This document shows, one piece after another, positions 1 through 9,054 of a DNA stretch of 9,054 nucleotides (positions are counted from its first letter, which is position 1; every line of letters begins with the position of its first letter). The DNA is taken from the IMG/VR virus record IMGVR_UViG_2778261179_000015, positions 1 through 9,054 of that record; one strand, given 5' to 3'. Below the pieces are notes generated by a model, which saw only the letters and a list, made by a program, of their open reading frames with translations, was not told the origin of the DNA and searched no databases. The DNA comes from a virus (Duplodnaviria > Heunggongvirae > Uroviricota > Caudoviricetes). A program made the position numbers and the translations under genes.

Positions 1-1239
1 ATGAGCAGCGCAATTCATAGACTTAGCGACACTCTTTTACGAAAATTAAGCGGATCACCAACCACAAAAAACGCCTTTTTTAATGACGGTGGCAATCTTA
101 GCGTAAGACATTCCACCAGCGGCCTGTTAACCTGGTATTTCACTTACAGGGCCGGAACTGGCAGGCAGGTATCACCGGAACGCCTGAGACTGGGCAACTA
201 TCCCGATCTGAGCCTGAAAGCAGCCAGGGAAAAAGCGGCACAGTGTCGCGCCTGGCTGGCGGAGGGGAAAAATCCACGCCATGAGCTTAATCACACAGTG
301 CAGGAAGCGTTAGCCCCCGTGACGGTTAAGGACGCGCTCACTTACTGGCTTGAGTCGTATGCGAAGGAAAAGCGCACTGACCACGAATCACTGAAAAGCC
401 GTATCAATAAGCACATAATCAGCCAGATTGGTGCTATGCCGCTGGATAAATGCGAGCTACGCCACTGGCTGGCCTGTTTTGACCAGCTTGCTAAGCGTAA
501 TCCGGTATCAGCCGGCTTTTTGTTGCAGGTATGCAAACAGGCGCTTAAGTACTGCCGTAAACGTCGCTACGCCGTCAGTAACGTTCTTGATGATATGGTC
601 GTAGGTGATGTGGGAAAAAAAGCAGAAATAAGCGAGCGAGTGCTAACAAACAAGGAGCTTGGCGAGCTACTCCGCGCACTGGATGAAAAAATTTTCCCGC
701 CGTACTACAGCGCTTTAATTCGCCTTCTGATTGTCTTCGGATGCCGTACCACTGAGCTAAGACGCTCCGAGGTTCGGGAATGGGATTTTAAAGAAATGCT
801 CTGGACTGTGCCGAAAGAACACAGCAAAACGAAGGTAGCAATATTCAGGCCAATACCGGAAGCGATCTTGCCGTTCGTCATGAAGCTGGTGGAGCAGAAC
901 AGGCACACGGGCTTATTGCTTGGAGAACTGAAAGGGCAATCATCCGTAGCAGAGTACGGAAGAACGGCACACAGACGCATTAATCAAGCCCCCTGGTCGT
1001 TGCACGACATCCGGCACACATTTACAACCATGCTGAACGATTTAGGCGTGGATCCGCATATTGTCGAACAGCTTACTGCCCACCAGATGCCAGGAATGCA
1101 ACGCGTCTATAACCACTCCCGTTATCTCGATGCAAAGCGTGACGCTCTTAATCTATGGGTAGACCGTCTCGAGCTTCTCCAGAACAATGATGAAAAAATC
1201 GTTGTTATGACCCCGCGAATTTACCCCCAAAATTCTTGA
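1..1239 (+). CDS. int: Tyrosine integrase, P4-type (N-terminal arm-binding domain plus catalytic domain)
   Basis: 412-aa ORF. The N-terminal segment (LTWYFTYRAGTGRQVSPERLRLGNYPDLSLKAAREKAAQCRAWLAEGKNP) matches the pattern of P4-family integrase N-terminal domains. The C-terminus carries the tyrosine-recombinase motifs HDIRHTF and VYNHSRYLD with the catalytic Tyr. The ATG sits at window position 1, so upstream att/tRNA context is not visible. Confidence 0.9.
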   Translation: MSSAIHRLSDTLLRKLSGSPTTKNAFFNDGGNLSVRHSTSGLLTWYFTYRAGTGRQVSPERLRLGNYPDLSLKAAREKAAQCRAWLAEGKNPRHELNHTVQEALAPVTVKDALTYWLESYAKEKRTDHESLKSRINKHIISQIGAMPLDKCELRHWLACFDQLAKRNPVSAGFLLQVCKQALKYCRKRRYAVSNVLDDMVVGDVGKKAEISERVLTNKELGELLRALDEKIFPPYYSALIRLLIVFGCRTTELRRSEVREWDFKEMLWTVPKEHSKTKVAIFRPIPEAILPFVMKLVEQNRHTGLLLGELKGQSSVAEYGRTAHRRINQAPWSLHDIRHTFTTMLNDLGVDPHIVEQLTAHQMPGMQRVYNHSRYLDAKRDALNLWVDRLELLQNNDEKIVVMTPRIYPQNS

Positions 1240-1280
1240 CAAATTACGGCTGTTTTTTCTTTAAGAGATTACAGCCGTGA

Positions 1281-1320
1281 ATAGATCTTAGAATATCGGG
1301 GAATATCTGCAAATATCTTC
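1281..1320. repeat. Tandem 10-bp direct repeats (RAATATC core) in the int-alpA intergenic region; possible regulator binding sites
   Basis: gaatatcggg / gaatatctgc / aaatatcttc at 1291, 1301 and 1311, preceded by a degenerate copy atagatctta at 1281. The 10-bp phasing puts the sites on one helix face. They lie in a 420-bp AT-rich intergenic region. Confidence 0.35.
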
Positions 1321-1660
1321 TCTTTATATGTGTCAACTATCGAAAAAAATTGAAATGTCTTCTTCTGAACTTTTATTCTCTGTTTCTTGATTGTTCCAAC
1401 ACTTGATGGTTTATCTATTTGTTTTTAATGAGATAATTCAAGCGTAATGCCAAGTAACGACATTTTTTGTTGCATCGCTTAAAAACTCGTGACACGATTT
1501 TAAACACTAACGAGCTTCTACGAACCTTAGCGAACAAAGCCTTTAGCAAGGTTGTGTTTTTAATTTAAGAGGTGAAAAAAGAATCTAAGTAATATCCGAT
1601 CTCATATATCTACAGCTAAGAGAAAAGTTTATATACGTAATTTTTTATGTAGGTTTTTGT

Positions 1661-1870
1661 ATGCGTGAAATAAATGAAGATCGCGTAATCCGTGAGGATG
1701 AATGTCGTAAGTTAACTGGAGTGTGTCGCACTACACGCTATGAACTGGAGAAAAAAGGGAATTTCCCGTCACGCCGTAATCTGGGCGGTCGTTCTGTAGG
1801 TTGGCTGCTGTCCGAGGTTATGGAATGGGTTAAAAGCCGGGATCGCATTAATTCAGGCAAGGCAGCGTAA
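1661..1870 (+). CDS. alpA: AlpA-family transcriptional regulator / excisionase-like HTH protein
   Basis: 69-aa ORF. The sequence ECRKLTGVCRTTRYELEKKGNFPSRRNLGGRSVGWLLSEVMEWV fits the AlpA (CP4-57 regulatory protein) HTH pattern, and its position just downstream of a P4-type integrase is typical. A weak SD (agg) lies 7 nt upstream of the ATG. Confidence 0.85.
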   Translation: MREINEDRVIREDECRKLTGVCRTTRYELEKKGNFPSRRNLGGRSVGWLLSEVMEWVKSRDRINSGKAA

Positions 1871-1885
1871 AGGGGGGCATATGAC

Positions 1886-1920
1886 ACATAAAACAAAGGC
1901 GACCCGGATCAGAGGTCGCC
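1886..1920 (-). terminator. Putative intrinsic terminator for the minus-strand RHH gene
   Basis: Perfect 7-bp stem GGCGACC (1898-1904) / GGTCGCC (1914-1920) with a 9-nt loop. On the minus strand it is followed by TTTGTTTTATGTG. It sits in the gap between the convergent alpA and RHH genes. Confidence 0.45.
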
Positions 1921-2011
1921 AGTGGGAATACACTAAACATAAGCCCAGCCATCATAGCGATTTGCTGGCTGGTGGGCAATGTGATCAGTGTGCTGGCTTG
2001 CTGGTTGGCTG

Positions 2012-2185
2012 TCAGCCTTTGGGCTCGATACCGCGCTGTTGTAATTCTTTGCGGAGTATTCGTTTAATCCAAGTAGCTAATGAGGTGTCGCCGTCTGCCT
2101 TGGCTGCTTCCTCAAGTTGCGCTCTAAATTCTTCTGGTAGTCGCATTTGGTATGGTGGCGATCGTTTCTCTAATGGTGTTGACAT
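2012..2185 (-). CDS. Arc/MetJ-type ribbon-helix-helix DNA-binding protein (putative element repressor)
   Basis: Hand-translated minus-strand ORF of 57 aa: MSTPLEKRSPPYQMRLPEEFRAQLEEAAKADGDTSLATWIKRILRKELQQRGIEPKG. It is below the length cutoff of the ORF track. The segment PYQMRLPEEFRAQLEEAAKADG has the beta-strand/helix signature of Arc-family RHH proteins. SD AAGGG lies 8 nt upstream, an in-frame stop lies immediately upstream of the ATG, and the start codon abuts a palindromic operator. Confidence 0.75.
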   Translation of the reverse strand: MSTPLEKRSPPYQMRLPEEFRAQLEEAAKADGDTSLATWIKRILRKELQQRGIEPKG

Positions 2186-2225
2186 GGTAATTACCCTTAA
2201 TTACTATAGTTACATGGTAATTACC
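2182..2225. promoter_or_regulatory. Divergent promoter/operator region: two copies of the palindrome GGTAATTACC in a 14-bp direct repeat, flanking the palindrome ACTATAGT
   Basis: ACATGGTAATTACC occurs at 2182-2195 and 2212-2225, 30 bp centre to centre. Each copy contains the perfect 10-bp palindrome GGTAATTACC. ACTATAGT (2203-2210) is itself palindromic and includes a TATAGT -10-like hexamer. TTACCATT half-site repeats follow at 2221-2240. The region lies between the RHH gene start and the downstream + operon. Confidence 0.55.
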
Positions 2226-2321
2226 ATTGTACTTACCATTACACAAAAAACAACGCCCCGCACTGTAGGAGCAGTAACGGGGCGTCTAACCACCAACGAT
2301 AGCAGAAGTATCGAGGTCGCT

Positions 2322-2525
2322 ATGAGAAATCATACCACACACCCGCAAGGGCGGGATTCGCACAACCTGAATAAATACATCTGGCGTTTTATCGCCCTGA
2401 GCACGGCACAACCGCGCGTGATTACCATTGAGGCCAGCAGCGAACAGGAAGCACGCCAGCAATCCCCGGCTGGCTGCGTGATGGTATTCGCCGCCCGTAT
2501 TCGTCAGGGGGTATGCCATGCCTGA
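2322..2525 (+). CDS. Small protein, possibly Icd-like (host cell division inhibitor family); first gene of the early/replication operon
   Basis: 68-aa ORF taken from the in-frame ATG at 2322 inside the 1881-2525 ORF-track entry. SD GAGG lies 5 nt upstream. Its stop overlaps the next start (ATGCCTGA). The family assignment is a recollection of small proteins annotated Icd-like beside alpA in P4-like prophages and was not verified. Confidence 0.45.
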   Translation: MRNHTTHPQGRDSHNLNKYIWRFIALSTAQPRVITIEASSEQEARQQSPAGCVMVFAARIRQGVCHA

Positions 2526-2838
2526 TATGTCAAATTACCAGTACCTGATTAATCCGCATTTTAACTGTGAGCATGATATTGCTAAAAAGGTTTATTCCGC
2601 TGCGGATGGGGCTACTGACAATATATCAATGGCTGTTGCGTCAATTGGTAGCCTGATGTGGCATGCGTCAGAAAATAAGGACTATGACGAAAAGGCTATG
2701 CGCATTGATATGGGTAATATCGGTTTGTTACTGGCAATGCTTGGGCAGTTTGATATTTCGTTACGGTGCACCATTGAAAATGCCACAGATGCATTAAATG
2801 CCATAAAGAAAGCGAATACTGATTCAAATCGGGGATAA
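2518..2838 (+). CDS. Hypothetical protein (106 aa), function unknown
   Basis: Strong SD AGGGGG 6 nt upstream. Translationally coupled to the upstream gene by an 8-nt overlap. No recognisable motif. Confidence 0.6.
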   Translation: MPDMSNYQYLINPHFNCEHDIAKKVYSAADGATDNISMAVASIGSLMWHASENKDYDEKAMRIDMGNIGLLLAMLGQFDISLRCTIENATDALNAIKKANTDSNRG

Positions 2839-2844
2839 ATAATC

Positions 2845-3144
2845 ATGAGAACATATTTATCTGGCTTGACTGCCAGCGGTTATGCACACCCCAAAATTAT
2901 CCCCGGCGCTATTTATCTGGATAAGAACGGTAACAGAGTAACGGTAAAAGAACTGATGTTTGACCGTGTGTATTTTATTCGTGATGGCTATTCATTTCAT
3001 AGTTCGCTGAACGTGGAGATCTTTATTAGCAGATTCAGGCGGGAAATCCCGCTTTCCAGAAATAACCATGTGTCACGTGTGGATGTGGATAAAAAACTAC
3101 AGGAACTGAAAAACATGATTGCCGCGTGGAGAGAGCAGAAATGA
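2845..3144 (+). CDS. Hypothetical protein (99 aa), function unknown
   Basis: SD GGGGA upstream. Its stop overlaps the replication gene start in an ATGA arrangement. No recognisable motif. Confidence 0.6.
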   Translation: MRTYLSGLTASGYAHPKIIPGAIYLDKNGNRVTVKELMFDRVYFIRDGYSFHSSLNVEIFISRFRREIPLSRNNHVSRVDVDKKLQELKNMIAAWREQK

Positions 3145-5264
3145 AAAAAGCGCCAAATTTAAAACACCAGCCGCGTGACAAAATGACGGAAGTCATCATT
3201 TTTGCGGGTAGTGATGCGTGGGCACATGCGAAACAGTGGCAGGAACAGGACGGGCGACTGGCTGGCGATAACGTGCCACCTGTCTGGCTTGGAGAGCAAC
3301 AACTTGCCGAACTGGACAACCTGCAAATCGTACCGGACGGACGCTATCGCGTGCGTCTCTATCAGGCGGGGTTATTGCGTCCGGGGCTTGTTAATACCAT
3401 CGGGCAGAAACTGGCAGTGGCAGGTGTCAGGGATGCTGATTATTACCCTGAAGGAATGCACAGCCAGAAACGGGAGAACTGGCGCGAATATCTGGAACGT
3501 GAACGGGCAGAGCAGGCGGAAAAGAAAAAGGTAGTTGAACTGCCTGTAAAGAAAAAAGAGCCATGCTATCAGGATGATGAATTAAAGCCCCGCGTTGAAA
3601 GTCGCGTCGATGGTGTTTTCTGGGTAACGCCCAAAGTGGATAAGCAGTCAGGCGAAATTATCCGGCCTGAGACGTGGTTATGTTCTCCGCTTGAACTACT
3701 GGGAACGGGGACGATCGGTAAAGAACATTACCGCGTGATGCGCTGGAAAAAATCAGCAAACCATGAAGTCATCACAATGGCGATCCCGTGTGGTGGCATT
3801 GGCGACCGTGACGGCTGGCGGTTACTTAAAGATCACGGGCTGAACGTGACAACCAACGGCAAATACAGGGCAATCCTGGCGGACTGGATGCAGTTAAGCG
3901 GAAGCCATGAGGAATGGCAGTTAAGCACAACAACGGGCTGGCATTTTGGCGCGTACATCATGCCGGACGGTTCGATCATTGGTGATTCTGAAAAACCGAT
4001 CCTGTTTACCGGAAAAAGCGCCGCGATTAACGGTTATTCCGTGGCGGGTACGGCGGAGGGCTGGCGCGAGAGTGTGGCGCGGCTGGCTGGCGGTAATGCC
4101 TCAATGATGCTGGGTGTGGCAACGTCACTGGCAGCGCCTTTAATTGGCCTTGTGGGTGCTGACGGCTTCGGGGTGCATCTTTTCGAACAGTCATCGGCAG
4201 GTAAGACCACCACGCAGAACATCGCATCAAGTTTATGGGGAGAGCCGGACGCACAACGGCTTACCTGGTACGGAACGGCGTTAGGTATCGCCAACGAGGC
4301 AGAGGCGCACAACGACGGGCTGTTACCCCTGGATGAAATAGGCCAGGCCGGAAACGCGCGGGAGGTGTCCACGTCAGCCTATACGTTGTTTAACGGCTCC
4401 GGGAAATTACAGGGGGCGAAGGACGGCGGCAACCGGGAGATAAAACACTGGCGCACGGTGGCAATCAGCACCGGAGAAATGGACGTTGAGACATTCCTCA
4501 AAACGGAGGGGATAAAAGTCAAAGCGGGGCAGCTTGTCCGCCTGCTTAACGTTCCGATGGAAAAAGCCACGCACTTTCACGAATACAGCACCGGAAAGGC
4601 GCACGCAGACGCGTTAAAGGATGCCTGGACAGAAAATCACGGGGCAGCGGGTCGTGAGTGGGTTAAATGGCTGGCAGGCCACCAGCAGGAGGCAAAGGAT
4701 ACGGTAAGGGAATGCCGCGAACGGTGGCGCAACCTGATACCGGAGAGCTACGGCGAGCAGGTCCACCGCGTGGGTGAGCGTTTCGCCATACTGGAGGCCG
4801 CGCTTGTGCTTTCCGGTCATGTAACTGGCTGGGCCGCGCAGGAATGCCGGGACGCAATACAGCATAACTTTAATGCCTGGGTGAAGGAGTTCGGCACGGG
4901 TAACAGGGAATTTAAACAGATGGTTGAACAGGCTGAGGCGTTTTTGTCGTCGTTCGGGTTCAGTCGATACCTTCCTTACCCAAACAGTGATGAACGTGAT
5001 TTACCGATTAAAGACCTTGCCGGATACAGAAAGGGGAGTATCAGAAATGAAGATGATGAGTTCCGTTTTTACACGTTTCCTCATGTGTTTGAGGGGGAGA
5101 TCGCACAGGGATTTAACCCGTCCCACTTTGCCCGCGCGTTGAGTGCTGCCGGAATGCTGGAAGCGGGTAACGATCGCCGTTACAAGAAAAAGGCTCTCGG
5201 CAAAATTGGGGGGAAGCAGCATGTTTTTTACGTGCTGATGTTCCAGCCTGAGGCAGAAGATTAA
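3141..5264 (+). CDS. Replication initiator, putative primase/helicase-type P-loop NTPase (Pri-Rep-like)
   Basis: About 707 aa from the ATG at 3141, with SD GGAGAG 7 nt upstream. The ORF track begins at a GTG at 3126. Walker A motif EQSSAGKTTTQN and Walker B-like motif GLLPLDEIG are present. Size, position after alpA and before an iteron array match satellite replication proteins. Confidence 0.8.
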   Translation: MKKAPNLKHQPRDKMTEVIIFAGSDAWAHAKQWQEQDGRLAGDNVPPVWLGEQQLAELDNLQIVPDGRYRVRLYQAGLLRPGLVNTIGQKLAVAGVRDADYYPEGMHSQKRENWREYLERERAEQAEKKKVVELPVKKKEPCYQDDELKPRVESRVDGVFWVTPKVDKQSGEIIRPETWLCSPLELLGTGTIGKEHYRVMRWKKSANHEVITMAIPCGGIGDRDGWRLLKDHGLNVTTNGKYRAILADWMQLSGSHEEWQLSTTTGWHFGAYIMPDGSIIGDSEKPILFTGKSAAINGYSVAGTAEGWRESVARLAGGNASMMLGVATSLAAPLIGLVGADGFGVHLFEQSSAGKTTTQNIASSLWGEPDAQRLTWYGTALGIANEAEAHNDGLLPLDEIGQAGNAREVSTSAYTLFNGSGKLQGAKDGGNREIKHWRTVAISTGEMDVETFLKTEGIKVKAGQLVRLLNVPMEKATHFHEYSTGKAHADALKDAWTENHGAAGREWVKWLAGHQQEAKDTVRECRERWRNLIPESYGEQVHRVGERFAILEAALVLSGHVTGWAAQECRDAIQHNFNAWVKEFGTGNREFKQMVEQAEAFLSSFGFSRYLPYPNSDERDLPIKDLAGYRKGSIRNEDDEFRFYTFPHVFEGEIAQGFNPSHFARALSAAGMLEAGNDRRYKKKALGKIGGKQHVFYVLMFQPEAED

Positions 5265-5287
5265 CCCCCTGTGTGAGGTGAAAAGTT

Positions 5288-5602
5288 GCGGGTTATGCGG
5301 GTTACTCTGTGTATAAGTGCATTAACTGCATGAATAAAAAGGAAATCAATAACCCGCACGTAACCCGCAAAACGGCAGTTATAACCCGCAAAAGTGCGAT
5401 TATAACCCGCAGATGAATAACAGGAAGTGACAGCAAACAGCCACGCGTAACCCGCAGAAAAAACCCCGTTTGCGGGTTATTTTGAGCATTTTGCGGGTTA
5501 CGCCACGGCTAAACAGTAAACAGTTAATTTTGTAATGTATTGATATTAAGGAATAAAAAATACTTAGCAAGCGAAGATAACCCGCTAACCCGCATAACCC
5601 GC
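5288..5602. repeat. Replication origin: array of about 12 iterons (R)TAACCCGC / GCGGGTTA(Y) flanking AT-rich segments
   Basis: GCGGGTTA orientation at 5288-5296, 5297-5305, 5472-5480 and 5493-5501. TAACCCGC orientation at 5349-5357, 5361-5368, 5381-5389, 5402-5410, 5447-5455, 5577-5585, 5586-5593 and 5594-5602. AT-rich stretches lie at 5505-5576 and 5607-5626. The array starts immediately downstream of the replication gene stop. Confidence 0.75.
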
Positions 5603-5644
5603 ACTGTTTTGTATATATATATACGAAAAATTGAGATCTGAACT

Positions 5645-5887
5645 ATGAAGGCAAACCGCAAACAACCACACTACCGCGCTATTGACCTTACAGAGCACTG
5701 GCTGAGAGTGGCGATAAAAATCATCGACCGAAACACGGGGGAAGGATATGCAAAAGCACATCCCGAACTGATAAGCGCATTCATGACAACGGCAGCTGCA
5801 AACTTTGCCACGTTGACAGAACGGGAGATTGCCGAAGCGGAACAGGTGACAACCATCAACGTTAAAACCGGAGAGCAGACAGCATGA
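5645..5887 (+). CDS. Hypothetical protein (80 aa), function unknown; co-operonic with ssb
   Basis: ORF directly after the origin. Its stop overlaps the ssb start (ATGA at 5884-5887). No recognisable motif. Confidence 0.5.
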   Translation: MKANRKQPHYRAIDLTEHWLRVAIKIIDRNTGEGYAKAHPELISAFMTTAAANFATLTEREIAEAEQVTTINVKTGEQTA

Positions 5888-6306
5888 CAGCACAGATAGC
5901 GGCTTACGGACGGCTGGTGGCTGACCCGCAGTTAAAGACCACCAGCAAGGGTACACAAATGGCGATGGCTAGTATGGCGGTCCCCCTTCCGTGCAGCCAG
6001 GCAGATGACGGAACGGCGATGATGTGGTTATCCGTCCTGGCGTTTGGCAGACAGGCCGACGCACTGGCAAAACACCACAAAGGCGAACTGGTGAGCGTGG
6101 CGGGTAACATGCAGGTAAGCCAGTGGACAGGCCAGAACGGCGAAACGCGGCAGGGCTGGCAGGTTATCGCAGACAGCGTGATCAGTGCGCGAACAGCGCG
6201 ACCGGGCGGCAAAAAAGGCCAGCAGGGGCAGGCCACTGACGCACTGAACAGGGCAAAACAACAGTCGGGGAATGATGATCCGTACGGCGATAATATACCG
6301 TTTTAA
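5884..6306 (+). CDS. ssb: Single-stranded DNA-binding protein (SSB) homolog
   Basis: 140 aa. The OB-fold core aligns by eye with E. coli SSB (IAAYGRLVADPQLKTTSKGTQMAMASMAV and WLSVLAFGRQADALAKHHKGELVSVAGNMQVSQWTGQNGETRQGWQV). A Gly/Gln-rich linker is followed by the C-terminal tip DDPYGDNIPF, resembling the SSB acidic tail ending DDDIPF. Confidence 0.8.
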   Translation: MTAQIAAYGRLVADPQLKTTSKGTQMAMASMAVPLPCSQADDGTAMMWLSVLAFGRQADALAKHHKGELVSVAGNMQVSQWTGQNGETRQGWQVIADSVISARTARPGGKKGQQGQATDALNRAKQQSGNDDPYGDNIPF

Positions 6307-6323
6307 ATTCTGCAAACAAAAAG

Positions 6324-6352
6324 ATGCCGGAAAAAAATAGATTTTCCGGCAT
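6324..6352. terminator. Stem-loop at the end of the ssb operon (possible terminator; the T-tract is on the minus strand)
   Basis: ATGCCGGAAAA (6324-6334) pairs with TTTTCCGGCAT (6342-6352) around a 7-nt loop. The plus strand has an A-tract before and no U-tract after. The minus strand has CTTTTTGTTTG after the stem. It separates the replication module from the capsid module. Confidence 0.4.
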
Positions 6353-6517
6353 GCTACATAAATCCCGACCAAAGGAAGTAAATACATTAACACGAATTAT
6401 CAGCACTGAAGTTGTCACGGCATATTTTATACAACATTGCACTTGGTTGCATGTATTCGCATAGCAGACATCGGTAATAGAATATATTCACAATTATTTG
6501 TAATGAATGTAAAGAGG

Positions 6518-7564
6518 ATGAGTATGGTTGACTTATATTCGCCTACACAGCTTGTGCAGGTGGCTAATGCTGAAGATGTGCAAAAAAAATTAAATGCGTT
6601 GTTTACCAGTTTGTTTTTCACTCGCTCGGTAATGTTTGAATCGAGAGACATTATTCTTGATACGATCGACGATCCAAATATCCCGATCGCGGCGTTTTGC
6701 TCTCCTATGGTGGGCAGTAAAGTTTCACGAGATGAGGGATACGAATCAAAAACAATTCGTCCAGGTTATATGAAGCCGAAAAGCAGCATTGATCCAAATA
6801 AGTTAGCTGTGCGCCCTGCTGGTGTGTCACCTGAGCAATACAATGCTTTTGGGGCGCGTAATATTAAAGTTAAACAGGCGATTGTAAATCAGGCTAAAGC
6901 TATTCGTGCACGTATTGAATGGCTTGCTGTTCAGGCAATCACAACGGGGAAAAATATCATTGAGGGCGATGGTATTGAACGTTATGAGCTGGACTGGAAT
7001 ATAAAACCACAAAATATCATCACTCAGTCTGGCGGTACTGAGTGGTCAGGTAAGGATAAAGAAACTTTTGATCCAAATGATGATATTGAGAGCTACGCAG
7101 AATTTAGTGAGGGCGTCACTAATATCATCATTATGGGTGGTAATGTATGGAAGAAATACCGTTCATTCAGAGCGATAAAAGAGGCTTTGGATACCCGTCG
7201 TGGTTCTAATTCCGAACTGGAAACGGCCCTTAAAGACCTTGGTGATTCGGTGAGTTTTAAAGGGTATATGGGCGATGTTGCGATTGTTGTTTACAGCGGG
7301 CGTTATACCGACGAGGACGGAACAGAAAAACATTTCCTTGATCCTGATTTGATGGTGCTTGGCAATACGGCTCTTCAGGGGATTGTCGCCTATGGCGGTA
7401 TTCAGGATCCGGAGCTAATCCGAATGGGGCTGACTAAAGCCGAACTTGCACCGAAAAACTATATTGTGCCTGGTGATCCGGCTATTGAATATGTGCAGAC
7501 ACATTCAGCACCACAGCCAATACCGGCCCGCATCAATCGTTTTGTTACCGTTCGCATTGGCTAA
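6518..7564 (+). CDS. Major capsid protein, phage lambda gpE-like (HK97-fold family)
   Basis: About 348 aa from MSMVDLYSPTQLVQ, which parallels the lambda gpE N-terminus MSMYTT. SD AAGAGG is immediately upstream. Extended similarity to recalled lambda gpE includes ITQSGGTEWS, KEALDTRRGSNSELETALKDLG and GDVAIVVYSG. The ORF track starts earlier at 6437, probably upstream of the true start. Confidence 0.85.
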   Translation: MSMVDLYSPTQLVQVANAEDVQKKLNALFTSLFFTRSVMFESRDIILDTIDDPNIPIAAFCSPMVGSKVSRDEGYESKTIRPGYMKPKSSIDPNKLAVRPAGVSPEQYNAFGARNIKVKQAIVNQAKAIRARIEWLAVQAITTGKNIIEGDGIERYELDWNIKPQNIITQSGGTEWSGKDKETFDPNDDIESYAEFSEGVTNIIIMGGNVWKKYRSFRAIKEALDTRRGSNSELETALKDLGDSVSFKGYMGDVAIVVYSGRYTDEDGTEKHFLDPDLMVLGNTALQGIVAYGGIQDPELIRMGLTKAELAPKNYIVPGDPAIEYVQTHSAPQPIPARINRFVTVRIG

Positions 7565-7573
7565 GGGGGAGCA

Positions 7574-7915
7574 ATGGCTACTCATTACACTGAACTCATG
7601 GCTGGCACTGAAGCACTGGTGACTACGCTGGGGATATTTTCAGCTAATAAAGGGGTAATTCCTGCATTTACGCCACTGATGCAGGAAGATGCAACAGGTG
7701 CACTGGTGGTATGGGATGGTTCGAGCGTAGGTAAAGCGGTTTATGTTTCCGCTGTACAAATCGACACAGCGAAAAAAACACAGGCACAGGTTTATAAGAC
7801 AGGTGTTTTAAATGTTGATGCTCTGAACTGGCCTGAGTCTGTAAAAGAACTGTCGGCAAAGGTTGCCGCGTTTGTTGGCTCAGGTATTTCTGTTCAGCCG
7901 CTGGCTCGTGTGTAA
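7574..7915 (+). CDS. Head decoration protein, phage lambda gpD-like
   Basis: 113 aa. The segment TPLMQEDATGALVVWDGSSVGKAVYVSAVQIDTAKKTQAQVYKTGVLNVDALNWPE parallels recalled lambda gpD (TPLMLDTSSRKLVAWDG...FYKSG...LWPE). SD AGGGGGA upstream; lies 10 nt after the capsid gene stop. Confidence 0.8.
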   Translation: MATHYTELMAGTEALVTTLGIFSANKGVIPAFTPLMQEDATGALVVWDGSSVGKAVYVSAVQIDTAKKTQAQVYKTGVLNVDALNWPESVKELSAKVAAFVGSGISVQPLARV

Positions 7916-7926
7916 AGGGGGATACA

Positions 7927-8310
7927 ATGCAGAATCATTACAATGACCTTAAGCCAATTGCCGAAATGATGTATCCGGATCCAGCAGTAGAGGAATTAAA
8001 GGCTATTGCTGACAAAATGCGTTTAAGTGAACGCCTTGTTGATATGAATCAGGTGATGGAACTTACTACCCTTAGCCGTCGCACATTGCTAAACCTTGAG
8101 GCTCGCGGAGAGTTCCCCGAACGCGTACAGGTTACGGAAGGGCGTAAGGCCTGGTATTTAAGTGAAGTGATCGACTGGATAAACAATATTCCTCGATCTT
8201 CTGAATATTGCCGCGTACCTGTCCCAAAAAAGCCAGATGCGGCGCTATGCCTCAAGATTGAGCGTGTACGTCGCAATGCACGGGATGGTCGCTATAAGTT
8301 GATTGGTTGA
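7927..8310 (+). CDS. AlpA-type HTH domain protein (127 aa) with N- and C-terminal extensions; putative regulator or DNA-specificity factor
   Basis: The central segment MNQVMELTTLSRRTLLNLEARGEFPERVQVTEGRKAWYLSEVIDWINN matches the AlpA/excisionase-type HTH pattern and resembles the alpA product at 1661-1870. SD GGGGG 5 nt upstream. The gene ends about 25 bp before the cos core. Confidence 0.7.
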   Translation: MQNHYNDLKPIAEMMYPDPAVEELKAIADKMRLSERLVDMNQVMELTTLSRRTLLNLEARGEFPERVQVTEGRKAWYLSEVIDWINNIPRSSEYCRVPVPKKPDAALCLKIERVRRNARDGRYKLIG

Positions 8311-8335
8311 TGAAATTAGGGCCCGTTCTGGCTGG

Positions 8336-8400
8336 CGGGTCCTTTCCGGCGATCCGGTAGGCTACGGGGCGGCGACCTCGCGGGTTTTCGCTATTTATGA
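8336..8400. other. Lambda-type cohesive end site (cosQ-cosN), with the 12-nt cohesive-end sequence GGGCGGCGACCT at 8367-8378
   Basis: Window 8336-8366 (CGGGTCCTTTCCGGCGATCCGGTAGGCTACG) matches the recalled right end of the lambda genome (CGGGTCCTTTCCGGTGATCCGACAGGTTACG) with 4 mismatches. Window 8367-8400 (GGGCGGCGACCTCGCGGGTTTTCGCTATTTATGA) matches the first 34 nt of the lambda genome exactly. Similarity is lost downstream of 8400, in the presumptive cosB (8401-8500). Confidence 0.85.
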
Positions 8401-8511
8401 GCCTTTTTCGGGTGCTGGTGGTGGTTTTGTTGTTCGCTCTATCTCTATGAATAAAAAGGAAAAGATAAAGCCAATACACCAACCTGAAACATTACTTAAG
8501 TGGGGATATTG

Positions 8512-9054
8512 ATGAAATCGCACCTGATGAACAAAAAAAACATGGCGCAAAGCTGCCGTGTAAGTGCGACAGCGTTCGACAAGTGGGGAGTGACTCCCGT
8601 TGAACGTAAAGGCCGCGAGGCGTTTTATGATGTTGCCAGCGTAATAGACAATCGGGTTAGCAATGCAATTAACCAGATTACAGACGACAAAGGCGAGATT
8701 GATAATGATGAGCTTTTGCGAGTCAGGATCAGATTGCTGACAGCGCAGGCGGAGGCGCAGGAGCTTAAAAACGAGCGCGAACGCGGCGATGTGATTAGTA
8801 CGGAATTTTGTATATATGCGCTTTCAAAACTGGCGAGTCAGATTTCTTCAATCATGGGCAGCCTGCCGCTTACTATGCAAAGGAGCTTCCCACAGATGAC
8901 CCCCGCCATGCTGGATGGCCTGAAAAAAGAAGTTGTCAGAGCCTGTAACGCATGCACAAAACTTGATGAAAACATCCCGCGAATGCTGTCCGATTATCTG
9001 ATGGAAACTACCGGAAATGTGCCTGATAAGTTTCAGCCGGATAAAGACAAGTAA
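8512..9054 (+). CDS. terS: Terminase small subunit, phage lambda Nu1-like
   Basis: About 180 aa from the ATG at 8512, with SD GGGGA upstream. Alternative starts exist at 8527 and 8542, and the ORF track begins at a GTG at 8500. The C-terminal two thirds (RLLTAQAEAQELKNERERGDVISTEFCIYALSKLASQISSIMGSLPLTMQRSFP...LDENIPRMLSDYLMETTG) parallels recalled lambda Nu1 (RLTRAQADAQELKNARDSAEVVETAFCTFVLSRIAGEIASILDGLPLSVQRRFP...LDELIPGLLSEYIEQSG). The N-terminal DNA-binding region is more diverged. The gene lies immediately downstream of cos, as in lambda. Confidence 0.85.
   Translation: MKSHLMNKKNMAQSCRVSATAFDKWGVTPVERKGREAFYDVASVIDNRVSNAINQITDDKGEIDNDELLRVRIRLLTAQAEAQELKNERERGDVISTEFCIYALSKLASQISSIMGSLPLTMQRSFPQMTPAMLDGLKKEVVRACNACTKLDENIPRMLSDYLMETTGNVPDKFQPDKDK

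Follow-up and report, generated by a model that had tools for sequence, protein, structure and literature searches.

Two small early-operon genes of an Escherichia coli phage satellite: a divergent DUF4222/RgdR-family member and a cassette gene for a predicted helical hairpin

We have analyzed two small open reading frames (ORFs) located between the early promoter and the replication gene of a 9,054-nt stretch of caudoviricete DNA (IMG/VR record IMGVR_UViG_2778261179_000015, positions 1 to 9,054; the window), which, judged by its gene content, is an E. coli phage satellite, an island of the phage-inducible chromosomal island (PICI) type. The upstream ORF (ORF-A) encodes an acidic protein of 106 amino acids (aa) from an unnamed family, and the downstream one (ORF-B) a basic 99-aa protein that, from its sequence, adds a divergent new member to the known RgdR/DUF4222 family. 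Both are genuine genes, coupled to their neighbors, syntenic across related elements and carried by a mosaic module, and the fold predicted for ORF-A is a two-helix hairpin. We hold with moderate confidence that they are two independent small early-operon genes of the satellite, ORF-B specifying a DNA-binding or regulatory accessory of replication and ORF-A a protein-binding cassette; DNA binding by ORF-B, its link to replication and the protein-binding role of ORF-A are each what we infer.

In the explanation that we favor, the early operon of the island is probably repressor-controlled. ORF-B would be translated together with the replication initiator, the start codon of which lies in the overlap. 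It would bind DNA with low specificity, like RgdR, and would have an accessory or regulatory part, as a DNA-binding factor, in the early replication program of the island, with effects on host promoters (such as those of RgdR on LEE1 and motility) as a possible by-product. ORF-A would be one of several interchangeable small acidic cassettes placed between the Icd-like and the DUF4222/primase genes, and may bind and modulate, without being an enzyme, another protein of the host, of the element or of a co-resident phage.

Coupling and conservation of the two genes

The operon comprises the following features (pI, isoelectric point):

2322-2525, + strand: Icd-like gene, 67 aa, pI 10.1 (NCBIfam NF033153, E = 1.7e-19; phrog_6196, 4.5e-46)
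2518-2838, + strand: ORF-A, 106 aa, acidic, pI 4.9 (unnamed family phrog_15327/phrog_6805)
2845-3144, + strand: ORF-B, 99 aa, basic, pI 9.99 (DUF4222, divergent RgdR-family member)
3141-5264, + strand: DUF927-type primase/helicase, 707 aa, the island replication gene (PF06048, 2.4e-48; phrog_1139 'DNA primase', 1.9e-181)
3141-3563, + strand: N-terminal 141-residue domain of the primase, which recombines apart from the rest of the protein

The two ORFs were confirmed on the + strand at the positions and with the lengths (106 and 99 aa) that an earlier note, made from the sequence alone, had given, and so were the overlaps of 8 and 4 nt that it had described, the former with the upstream Icd-like gene and the latter with the downstream primase gene. 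The ORF-A ATG (2518) lies 8 nt inside the Icd-like ORF, whose TGA occupies 2523-2525 (ATGCCTGA), and the ORF-B TGA (3142-3144) shares the 4 nt ATGA with the primase start codon (3141). ORF-A and ORF-B do not overlap each other, being separated by a 6-nt spacer. Shine-Dalgarno (SD)-like sequences precede both starts: GGGGG 6 nt 5' of the ATG at 2518, and GGGGA 9 nt 5' of the ORF-B ATG. Small early genes of satellites were found repeatedly joined by an identical 8-nt overlap, ATGNNTGA (window, 2518-2525; P4, L010 8168-8175; also L008, L012, L014 and L002), as a consequence of which the upstream proteins end in ...H-A or ...H-V and the downstream proteins begin with M-x-D/E/K. This recurrence suggests a shared coupling or recombination junction for cassette swapping.

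In the comparison with a metagenomic relative of the same layout (L011; protein identity of 66% for ORF-A and 87% for ORF-B), the ratio of nonsynonymous to synonymous substitution rates (dN/dS) was 0.24 for ORF-A (dS ~1.0) and 0.16 for ORF-B (dS ~0.4), which is indicative of purifying selection. Of 5,426 complete E. coli genomes, 474 contained the 627-bp pair at 95-99% identity, and in 471 of the 474 the match covered at least 80% of the query. The annotation there was invariably Icd-like/hypothetical/DUF4222/primase, and RefSeq annotated both genes in every E. coli copy that was fetched. DNA and tblastn searches of GenBank phages with ORF-A and ORF-B found nothing.

These conservation data refute the view of the ORFs as reading frames arisen by chance or as pseudogenes in decay, which we regard as practically out of the question. 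Both are short, and neither Pfam nor NCBIfam has a match to ORF-A. Such a view is nevertheless at odds with dN/dS values of 0.16-0.24 at dS 0.4-1.0, with the near-identical pair in hundreds of genomes, with the gapless alignment of distant homologues over several genera and with the SD-like sequences ahead of both starts. Both families were also found in related islands.

The DUF4222 protein and its replication initiator

The earlier note had also stated that the two proteins match nothing recognizable. For the 99-aa protein this proved wrong, because ORF-B matched Pfam PF13973 (DUF4222) with 61.1 bits (cut-off 27, E = 7.2e-17), residues 16-67 aligning with profile positions 1-52 of 53, and could be aligned with the RgdR family. 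The match to phrog_285 had an E value of 2.2e-21; RgdR itself scored 82 bits against PF13973. BLASTP aligned residues 1-99 of ORF-B with residues 1-99 of ECs1581 at 32% identity (E = 8e-14), and a global alignment with this DUF4222 protein of strain Sakai gave 35% identity. The motifs SGLxASG, [PR]G[DA]IY and RVxFxR[DE]GY are common to ORF-B and RgdR. The RGD tripeptide (aa 20-22) is absent from ORF-B, which reads P20-G21-A22, the nearest relatives outside E. coli having PGD. RGD marks the RgdR subgroup of enterohemorrhagic E. coli (EHEC) and not the Pfam family, most DUF4222 relatives carrying PGD. The pI of 9.99 would be consistent with DNA binding like that of RgdR.

RgdR is ECs1581, a 99-aa DUF4222 regulator encoded by O-island 51 (OI-51), prophage Sp7, of EHEC O157:H7 (PMC10877973, PMC3378721). 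It stimulates both the LEE1 promoter and type III secretion, represses motility, binds DNA with low affinity and non-specifically, and needs residue 20, within the RGD motif, for its activity (PMC3378721). The CFT073 orthologue C1493 likewise activates LEE1/type III secretion and represses motility, and the deletion of OI-51 reduced the colonization of sheep (PMC3378721). RgdR was found in all E. coli PICIs analyzed by Fillol-Salom et al., including EcCICFT073, and was listed as an accessory virulence gene (PMC6092414). Since RGD is replaced by PGA in ORF-B, the virulence phenotype of RgdR is not transferable to it.

The action of RgdR and of its CFT073 orthologue on LEE1/type III secretion and motility, the lowered colonization of sheep upon loss of OI-51 (PMC3378721) and the listing of RgdR as a PICI accessory virulence gene (PMC6092414) are in favor of ORF-B being mainly a host-directed 'moron' regulator that adjusts genes for virulence, motility or the surface in the interest of the lysogen and plays no part in the island cycle. 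Distinctly unlikely in our opinion, such a role would sit poorly with a gene that is inside the early operon, where repression is probable while the island is resident, and whose translation is coupled to that of the primase gene. Morons typically have their own promoter, whereas ORF-B lies within the operon. Furthermore, the DUF4222 slot is kept in strains and genera lacking the locus of enterocyte effacement and in temperate phages, and ORF-B lacks the RGD residue important for RgdR activity (PGA; PGD in most of the family).

The preferred assignment of ORF-B to the replication program draws on gene position. DUF4222 genes were found directly before, and overlapping, the gene of an initiator, which is the DUF927 protein in the window, a 605-aa primase of unrelated core in other E. 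coli islands, the primase that follows ECs1581 in Sakai, a D5_N/Pox_D5 primase in Klebsiella, and an O-like initiator in e14, SfIV and vB_EcoM-720R4. DUF4222 extends to autonomous temperate phages and prophages (e14, SfIV, SfII). A search of GenBank phages with the Klebsiella DUF4222 protein found nothing. In satellites of Hafnia and Serratia, the slot before the primase gene is taken by another small basic protein, phrog_6610 (pI ~10). These pre-primase proteins of 112-115 aa were considered as divergent DUF4222 members and rejected, as they belong to phrog_6610 and are negative with the DUF4222 hidden Markov model.

The primase sequences revealed the mosaic nature of the module. The first 141 residues of the window primase are 97-99% identical to those of the 605-aa primase, the remainder being 24% identical (L016, L017, L019). 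Global alignments with the Sakai primase (L002) gave the inverse pattern, with 71% identity within the first 141 residues and 95% beyond. The Icd-like proteins of Sakai and the window are 54% identical (global alignment). Based on the identity pattern over the 141 residues, the recombining unit consists of the Icd-like gene, ORF-A, ORF-B and the N-terminal domain of the primase. The DUF4222 subtype co-varies with these 141 residues. It is this co-variation, together with the adjacency to the initiator, that leads us to propose that DUF4222 proteins may be DNA-binding accessories tied to the initiator.

Several points weigh against this assignment. The link of ORF-B to DNA and to the primase is one that we infer from sequence. 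Sequence searches of the PDB with the profiles returned chance-level matches only, with no DUF4222 relative of solved structure. The adjacency of DUF4222 and initiator genes is not universal: a single gene separates the two in L012, and the DUF4222 gene of L023 comes after an AntA gene and lies four genes upstream of the primase gene. Finally, the co-variation with the primase N-terminus could come from physical linkage alone.

In prophage e14, an unannotated DUF4222 ORF (Pfam, 8.6e-19) was observed out of frame in the 3' half of ymfM (L022:3502-3681; ~1204001-1204180 of E. coli K-12 MG1655, NC_000913.3), with counterparts at L020:3438-3659 and in L021. It has a TTG start with a perfect AAGGAG 8 nt upstream and shares 11 nt with the beginning of the replication gene ymfN/oweE. 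In the three sequences compared over the ymfM/DUF4222 overlap, all substitutions (4/4 per pair) were silent in the DUF4222 frame and changed the amino acid in that of ymfM. YmfM itself was rejected as a DUF4222 protein, the annotated frame having no match and the match lying in the overlapping unannotated frame. Most of the e14 DUF4222 ORF would be contained in the published ymfM over-expression clone ('cell division inhibitor YmfM').

A wider joint reading, which we put forward tentatively and consider improbable in its entirety, would make DUF4222 proteins unrecognized, initiator-coupled replication accessories of PICI-type satellites and e14/SfIV-type phages, subtype-matched to the initiator N-terminus, with ORF-A taking the place of epsilon of satellite P4. 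If true, the regulation of virulence by RgdR would be a side effect, and the e14 'SfiC/YmfM' division-inhibition assignment would be confounded by the hidden DUF4222 gene. ORF-A would then be a non-homologous epsilon replacement, an inhibitor, coupled to Icd, that acts on a repressor or host factor and gives the island control on entry. RgdR is cited as a virulence regulator of E. coli PICIs. Because a divergent gene lacking RGD keeps the slot, because DUF4222 genes stand before four kinds of initiator, one copy being hidden in e14 of E. coli K-12, and because the DUF4222 subtype co-varies with the primase N-terminus, a testable hypothesis for the primary function of DUF4222 can be formulated.

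The ORF-A family and its predicted fold

For the 106-aa protein, the statement that nothing recognizable is matched held in part: searches of Pfam, NCBIfam and PADLOC with ORF-A gave no match, and yet it belongs to a recognizable, uncharacterized family, phrog_15327/phrog_6805 (9.5e-72 against phrog_15327). A word-indexed search retrieved close E. coli copies only, and an exhaustive HMMER search recovered distant relatives of ~100 aa that could be aligned without gaps. The profile search collected 133 proteins, from Enterobacterales only (E. coli, Klebsiella, Hafnia, Serratia, Yersinia, Raoultella, Phytobacter). All 64 family members sampled matched phrog_15327 and 63 of them phrog_6805, both function-unassigned PHROGs. 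The 64 are acidic without exception (median pI 4.66), and none matched Pfam at E ≤ 10.

AlphaFold2, supplied with the 64-sequence alignment, predicted a two-helix hairpin for ORF-A (helices 19-52 and 58-105, pLDDT 84.9); this alignment replaced one of 5 sequences that had yielded an unusable model (pLDDT 55.8). ORF-A carries the core motif of the family, G-x-S-x-IG-x-LMF-x-A ... Y ... DM-x-x-IG-x-x-L. In the model, the conserved residues (G39, I43, G44, L46, M47, A50, Y56, D64, M65, G69 and L72) would cluster in the third of the hairpin nearest to its acidic, aromatic tip. A PDB sequence search with the family profile gave chance-level matches only. A transmembrane protein was judged unlikely, the maximum Kyte-Doolittle score over 19 residues being 1.46 (family median, 1.38). 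The hairpin, the acidity of the family and the lack of a match to catalytic families, PADLOC or Pfam favor a protein-binding role of ORF-A.

Many proteins of the family, including most of those from Klebsiella (P0080, P0085, P0089 and others), are named 'ubiquinol-cytochrome C reductase' in NCBI/UniRef. This name has no Pfam support and seems to be an annotation error that was passed on.

In satellites of Klebsiella, Hafnia, Serratia and others, the ORF-A-family gene lies downstream of the Icd-like gene, with 0-2 small cassettes between them, and upstream of a DUF4222 or phrog_6610 gene and the primase gene. The interval from the Icd-like gene to the primase gene is a variable cassette zone in related islands, and the neighboring cassettes are small and mostly acidic. 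In Yersinia lambdoid prophages, the family gene comes first after cI or cI-rexA-rexB, i.e., at the position of lambda N in the early-left operon. In all contexts examined it was part of an early operon and, by this gene context, the ORF-A family belongs to the early genes of satellites as well as of autonomous temperate phages.

Some assemblies (proteins P0002 and P0057) were observed to carry fused Icd-like::ORF-A reading frames (…RIRQGCAMPDMSNYQ…). A 1-nt change in the 8-nt overlap could explain the fusion, be it a sequencing error or a natural frameshift variant. Together with the overlap and the opposite charges of the two proteins (pI 4.9 and 10.1), these fused frames would suit a translationally coupled toxin-antidote pair, in which the acidic ORF-A is the antidote to the basic Icd-like protein. 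We consider such a pair very unlikely, given that the pairing is not obligate: Sakai has an Icd-like gene without ORF-A, in Klebsiella, Hafnia and Serratia the small genes ahead of ORF-A-like genes are not Icd genes, and in Yersinia prophages ORF-A-like genes occur by themselves.

The Icd-like gene also raises the possibility of abortive infection or superinfection exclusion. In ECOR61, a 'prophage' locus of six linked genes, among them an Icd-like and a DNA primase gene, causes cell death upon expression of phage orf24, and the effector is probably the Icd-like protein according to Silas et al. (bioRxiv 10.1101/2023.04.06.535777). By extension, the early operon of the window (Icd-like toxin, cassettes, DUF4222, primase) might be a cell-death module fired when an accessory protein of an invading phage derepresses it, and ORF-A and ORF-B might be required co-factors or modulators of the Icd-like effector. 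We judge the module unlikely, and the co-factor role equally so. The genes hit by transposons in the ECOR61 suppressors measure 366, 186 and 192 nt, with overlaps of 8 and 1 nt (Supplementary File 5, bioRxiv 10.1101/2023.04.06.535777). Sakai ECs1578 (186 nt) and ECs1579 (192 nt) match these lengths and both overlaps (L002:3501-4067), and the 366-nt Icd-like gene has the position of ECs1577, which is 198 nt as annotated in Sakai. This match makes the six-gene locus a probable early operon of the OI-51 type, with an RgdR-type gene among its members, the gene identities being derived from lengths only. In layout the window operon is the same, ORF-A replacing two or three small cassettes. Against the proposal, besides the derivation of the ECOR61 gene identities from lengths, stand the absence of ORF-A itself from the ECOR61 locus, the possibility that the transposon hits were polar and the lack of a PADLOC match for ORF-A or ORF-B. 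In addition, ORF-A-family genes have no adjacent Icd-like gene in Yersinia prophages, and other genes lie between the two in Klebsiella, Hafnia and Serratia.

Phages and satellites as a rule carry small, uncharacterized early genes, and the finding is unsurprising in kind. Its most useful products are the initiator-coupled pattern of DUF4222, the co-variation with the N-terminal domain of the primase, the delineation of a hairpin family for ORF-A and the hidden DUF4222 gene of e14. The ORF-A family, carried by hundreds of genomes of E. coli and Klebsiella and unnamed in Pfam, is a tractable target for studying the function of early satellite cassettes.

Island layout and comparison with known systems

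Outside the operon, the window contains the following features:

1-1239: integrase (Phage_integrase)
1661-1870: AlpA
2012-2185, - strand: divergent gene for an Arc/YlcI-YnfO-like ribbon-helix-helix protein, 57 aa (Pfam Arc, 0.0057; NCBIfam YlcI_YnfO_N, 0.001; phrog_228 'Arc-like repressor', 3e-07)
2179-2207, + strand: predicted sigma-70-type early promoter, TTGACA-17-TACTAT (10/12 consensus matches; consensus match only)
2184-2197 and 2214-2227: operator-like palindromes ATGGTAATTACC(A/C)T, with a degenerate third copy at 2229-2241
6437-7564: lambda capsid E homologue (Phage_cap_E)
7574-7915: decoration D homologue (HDPD)
7927-8310: second AlpA-like gene
8500-9054: Nu1-like small terminase (TerS) gene

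The PICI-type traits found were an integrase, AlpA, a primase-type replication gene, partial packaging/capsid genes and the lack of a full phage gene set in the window. Downstream of the primase gene, the order is single-stranded DNA-binding protein, capsid-E and decoration-D homologues, AlpA-like and Nu1-like small terminase. The relatives of the island are of the capsid-forming PICI (cf-PICI) and helper-embedded PICI types. Islands with the same module were seen inserted in the major-capsid gene of a prophage, which is the helper-embedded type, in E. coli MMC-J-0066 (L016) and in Klebsiella (L003/L004). L016 has the same set of capsid E, decoration D, AlpA-like and Nu1-like genes and additionally encodes a TIR-domain gene and an abortive-infection gene.

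The Icd-like gene (NF033153, 69.6 bits; cut-off 25) is the first of the early operon, between the promoter and ORF-A, and its homologues are likewise placed in the Sakai, Hafnia, Serratia and L012 satellites. Both ATGGTAATTACC-type palindromes and the degenerate copy overlap the promoter and abut the start of the divergent Arc-like gene (2179-2241); a repeat search returned the palindrome as a 12-nt inverted repeat with 100% complementarity. The homologue of the Arc-like gene in RefSeq is named 'YlcI/YnfO family protein'. Its product is a candidate repressor of the early promoter, and an early, repressor-controlled operon is a plausible interpretation of this region. Promoter, palindromes and Arc-like gene look like the repressor-operator switch of the island and resemble a P22 immI-type arrangement. 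The leader of ~110 nt between the promoter and the Icd-like start contains a G+C-rich hairpin, GCCCCG...CGGGGC (2252-2288). P4 and P1 encode immunity RNAs at the equivalent place. A scan of the whole window with Rfam (E ≤ 1) matched no family, and so no P4 CI- or P1 C4-type RNA.

The earlier note had singled out the two ORFs as candidates for manipulation of the helper. In P1, translation of icd is coupled to that of the antirepressor gene ant; in P22, ant is preceded by arc. By analogy, ORF-A might be the functional counterpart of P4 epsilon or P1 Ant, an antirepressor inactivating the repressor of a resident helper prophage, and ORF-B might interfere with the helper. Position is what speaks for this proposal. 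ORF-A occupies, within the variable cassette zone, the slot of P4 epsilon ('helper derepression protein', PF25738) and has the same 8-nt overlap with the Icd-like ORF (ATGCCTGA in the window, GTGCGTAA in P4); the old P4 'cI' ORF matched NF033153 with 7.8e-21, compared with 1.7e-19 for the window gene. The window also has Arc-like and Icd-like genes together, and ORF-A is small, acidic and predicted to be helical, as are many anti-repressors.

Support for this part of the earlier claim is positional. ORF-A has no homology to epsilon (BLASTP and hmmsearch negative; hhalign probability 0.5%), its family occurs in autonomous Yersinia lambdoid prophages, where derepressing a helper makes no sense, and DUF4222 is also found in ordinary temperate phages. 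Because both families occur in autonomous temperate phages, ORF-A and ORF-B are not satellite-specific helper-manipulation devices. Gram-negative PICIs are induced by the helper through AlpA, not the reverse (PMC6092414, PMC11773190), and the characterized DUF4222 member, RgdR, regulates host genes and not the helper (PMC3378721). We therefore look upon an antirepressor role of ORF-A, and the helper proposal as a whole, as doubtful. Sequence and profile comparison led us to reject any similarity of ORF-A or ORF-B to epsilon, ORF151 or ORF106 of P4.

Among known systems, P4 epsilon is thus the positional counterpart of ORF-A: it lies directly downstream of an Icd-like ORF, with the 8-nt overlap, and upstream of a primase gene, and has 95 aa compared with the 106 of ORF-A. 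The two differ in that no sequence or profile similarity links them and in that the ORF-A family is also found in autonomous prophages. In its predicted fold, and in this only, ORF-A would resemble two-helix hairpins such as WXG100/EsxA-type proteins (EsxA), HP0062, ROP and the DksA coiled coil. The W-x-G turn motif of WXG100 proteins is absent, the turn of ORF-A reading S-E-N-K-D-Y-D, and no type VII secretion genes were found near ORF-A.

The DUF4222 ORFs of e14, SfIV and 720R4 share with ORF-B the DUF4222 domain (8.6e-19) and the location directly before an initiator gene whose start they overlap. They are shorter (59-73 aa), without the C-terminal helix-like extension, and belong to the early-right operon of an autonomous temperate phage, after a CII-like gene, where they are hidden out of frame. 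RgdR differs from ORF-B in having only about one third of its residues identical, in RGD (PGA in ORF-B), in its upstream cassettes (ECs1578-1580 in Sakai, ORF-A in the window) and in the N-terminal domain of the adjoining primase, 71% identical to that of the window when the rest is 95% identical. In size (99 aa), basic character, PF13973 match and full-length alignment the two proteins nevertheless agree. Moreover, ECs1581 is also the last gene before the primase gene, which it overlaps by 4 nt (ECs1581 end, 4604; primase start, 4601), and both ECs1581 and ORF-B lie downstream of an Icd-like gene in a PICI-type island.

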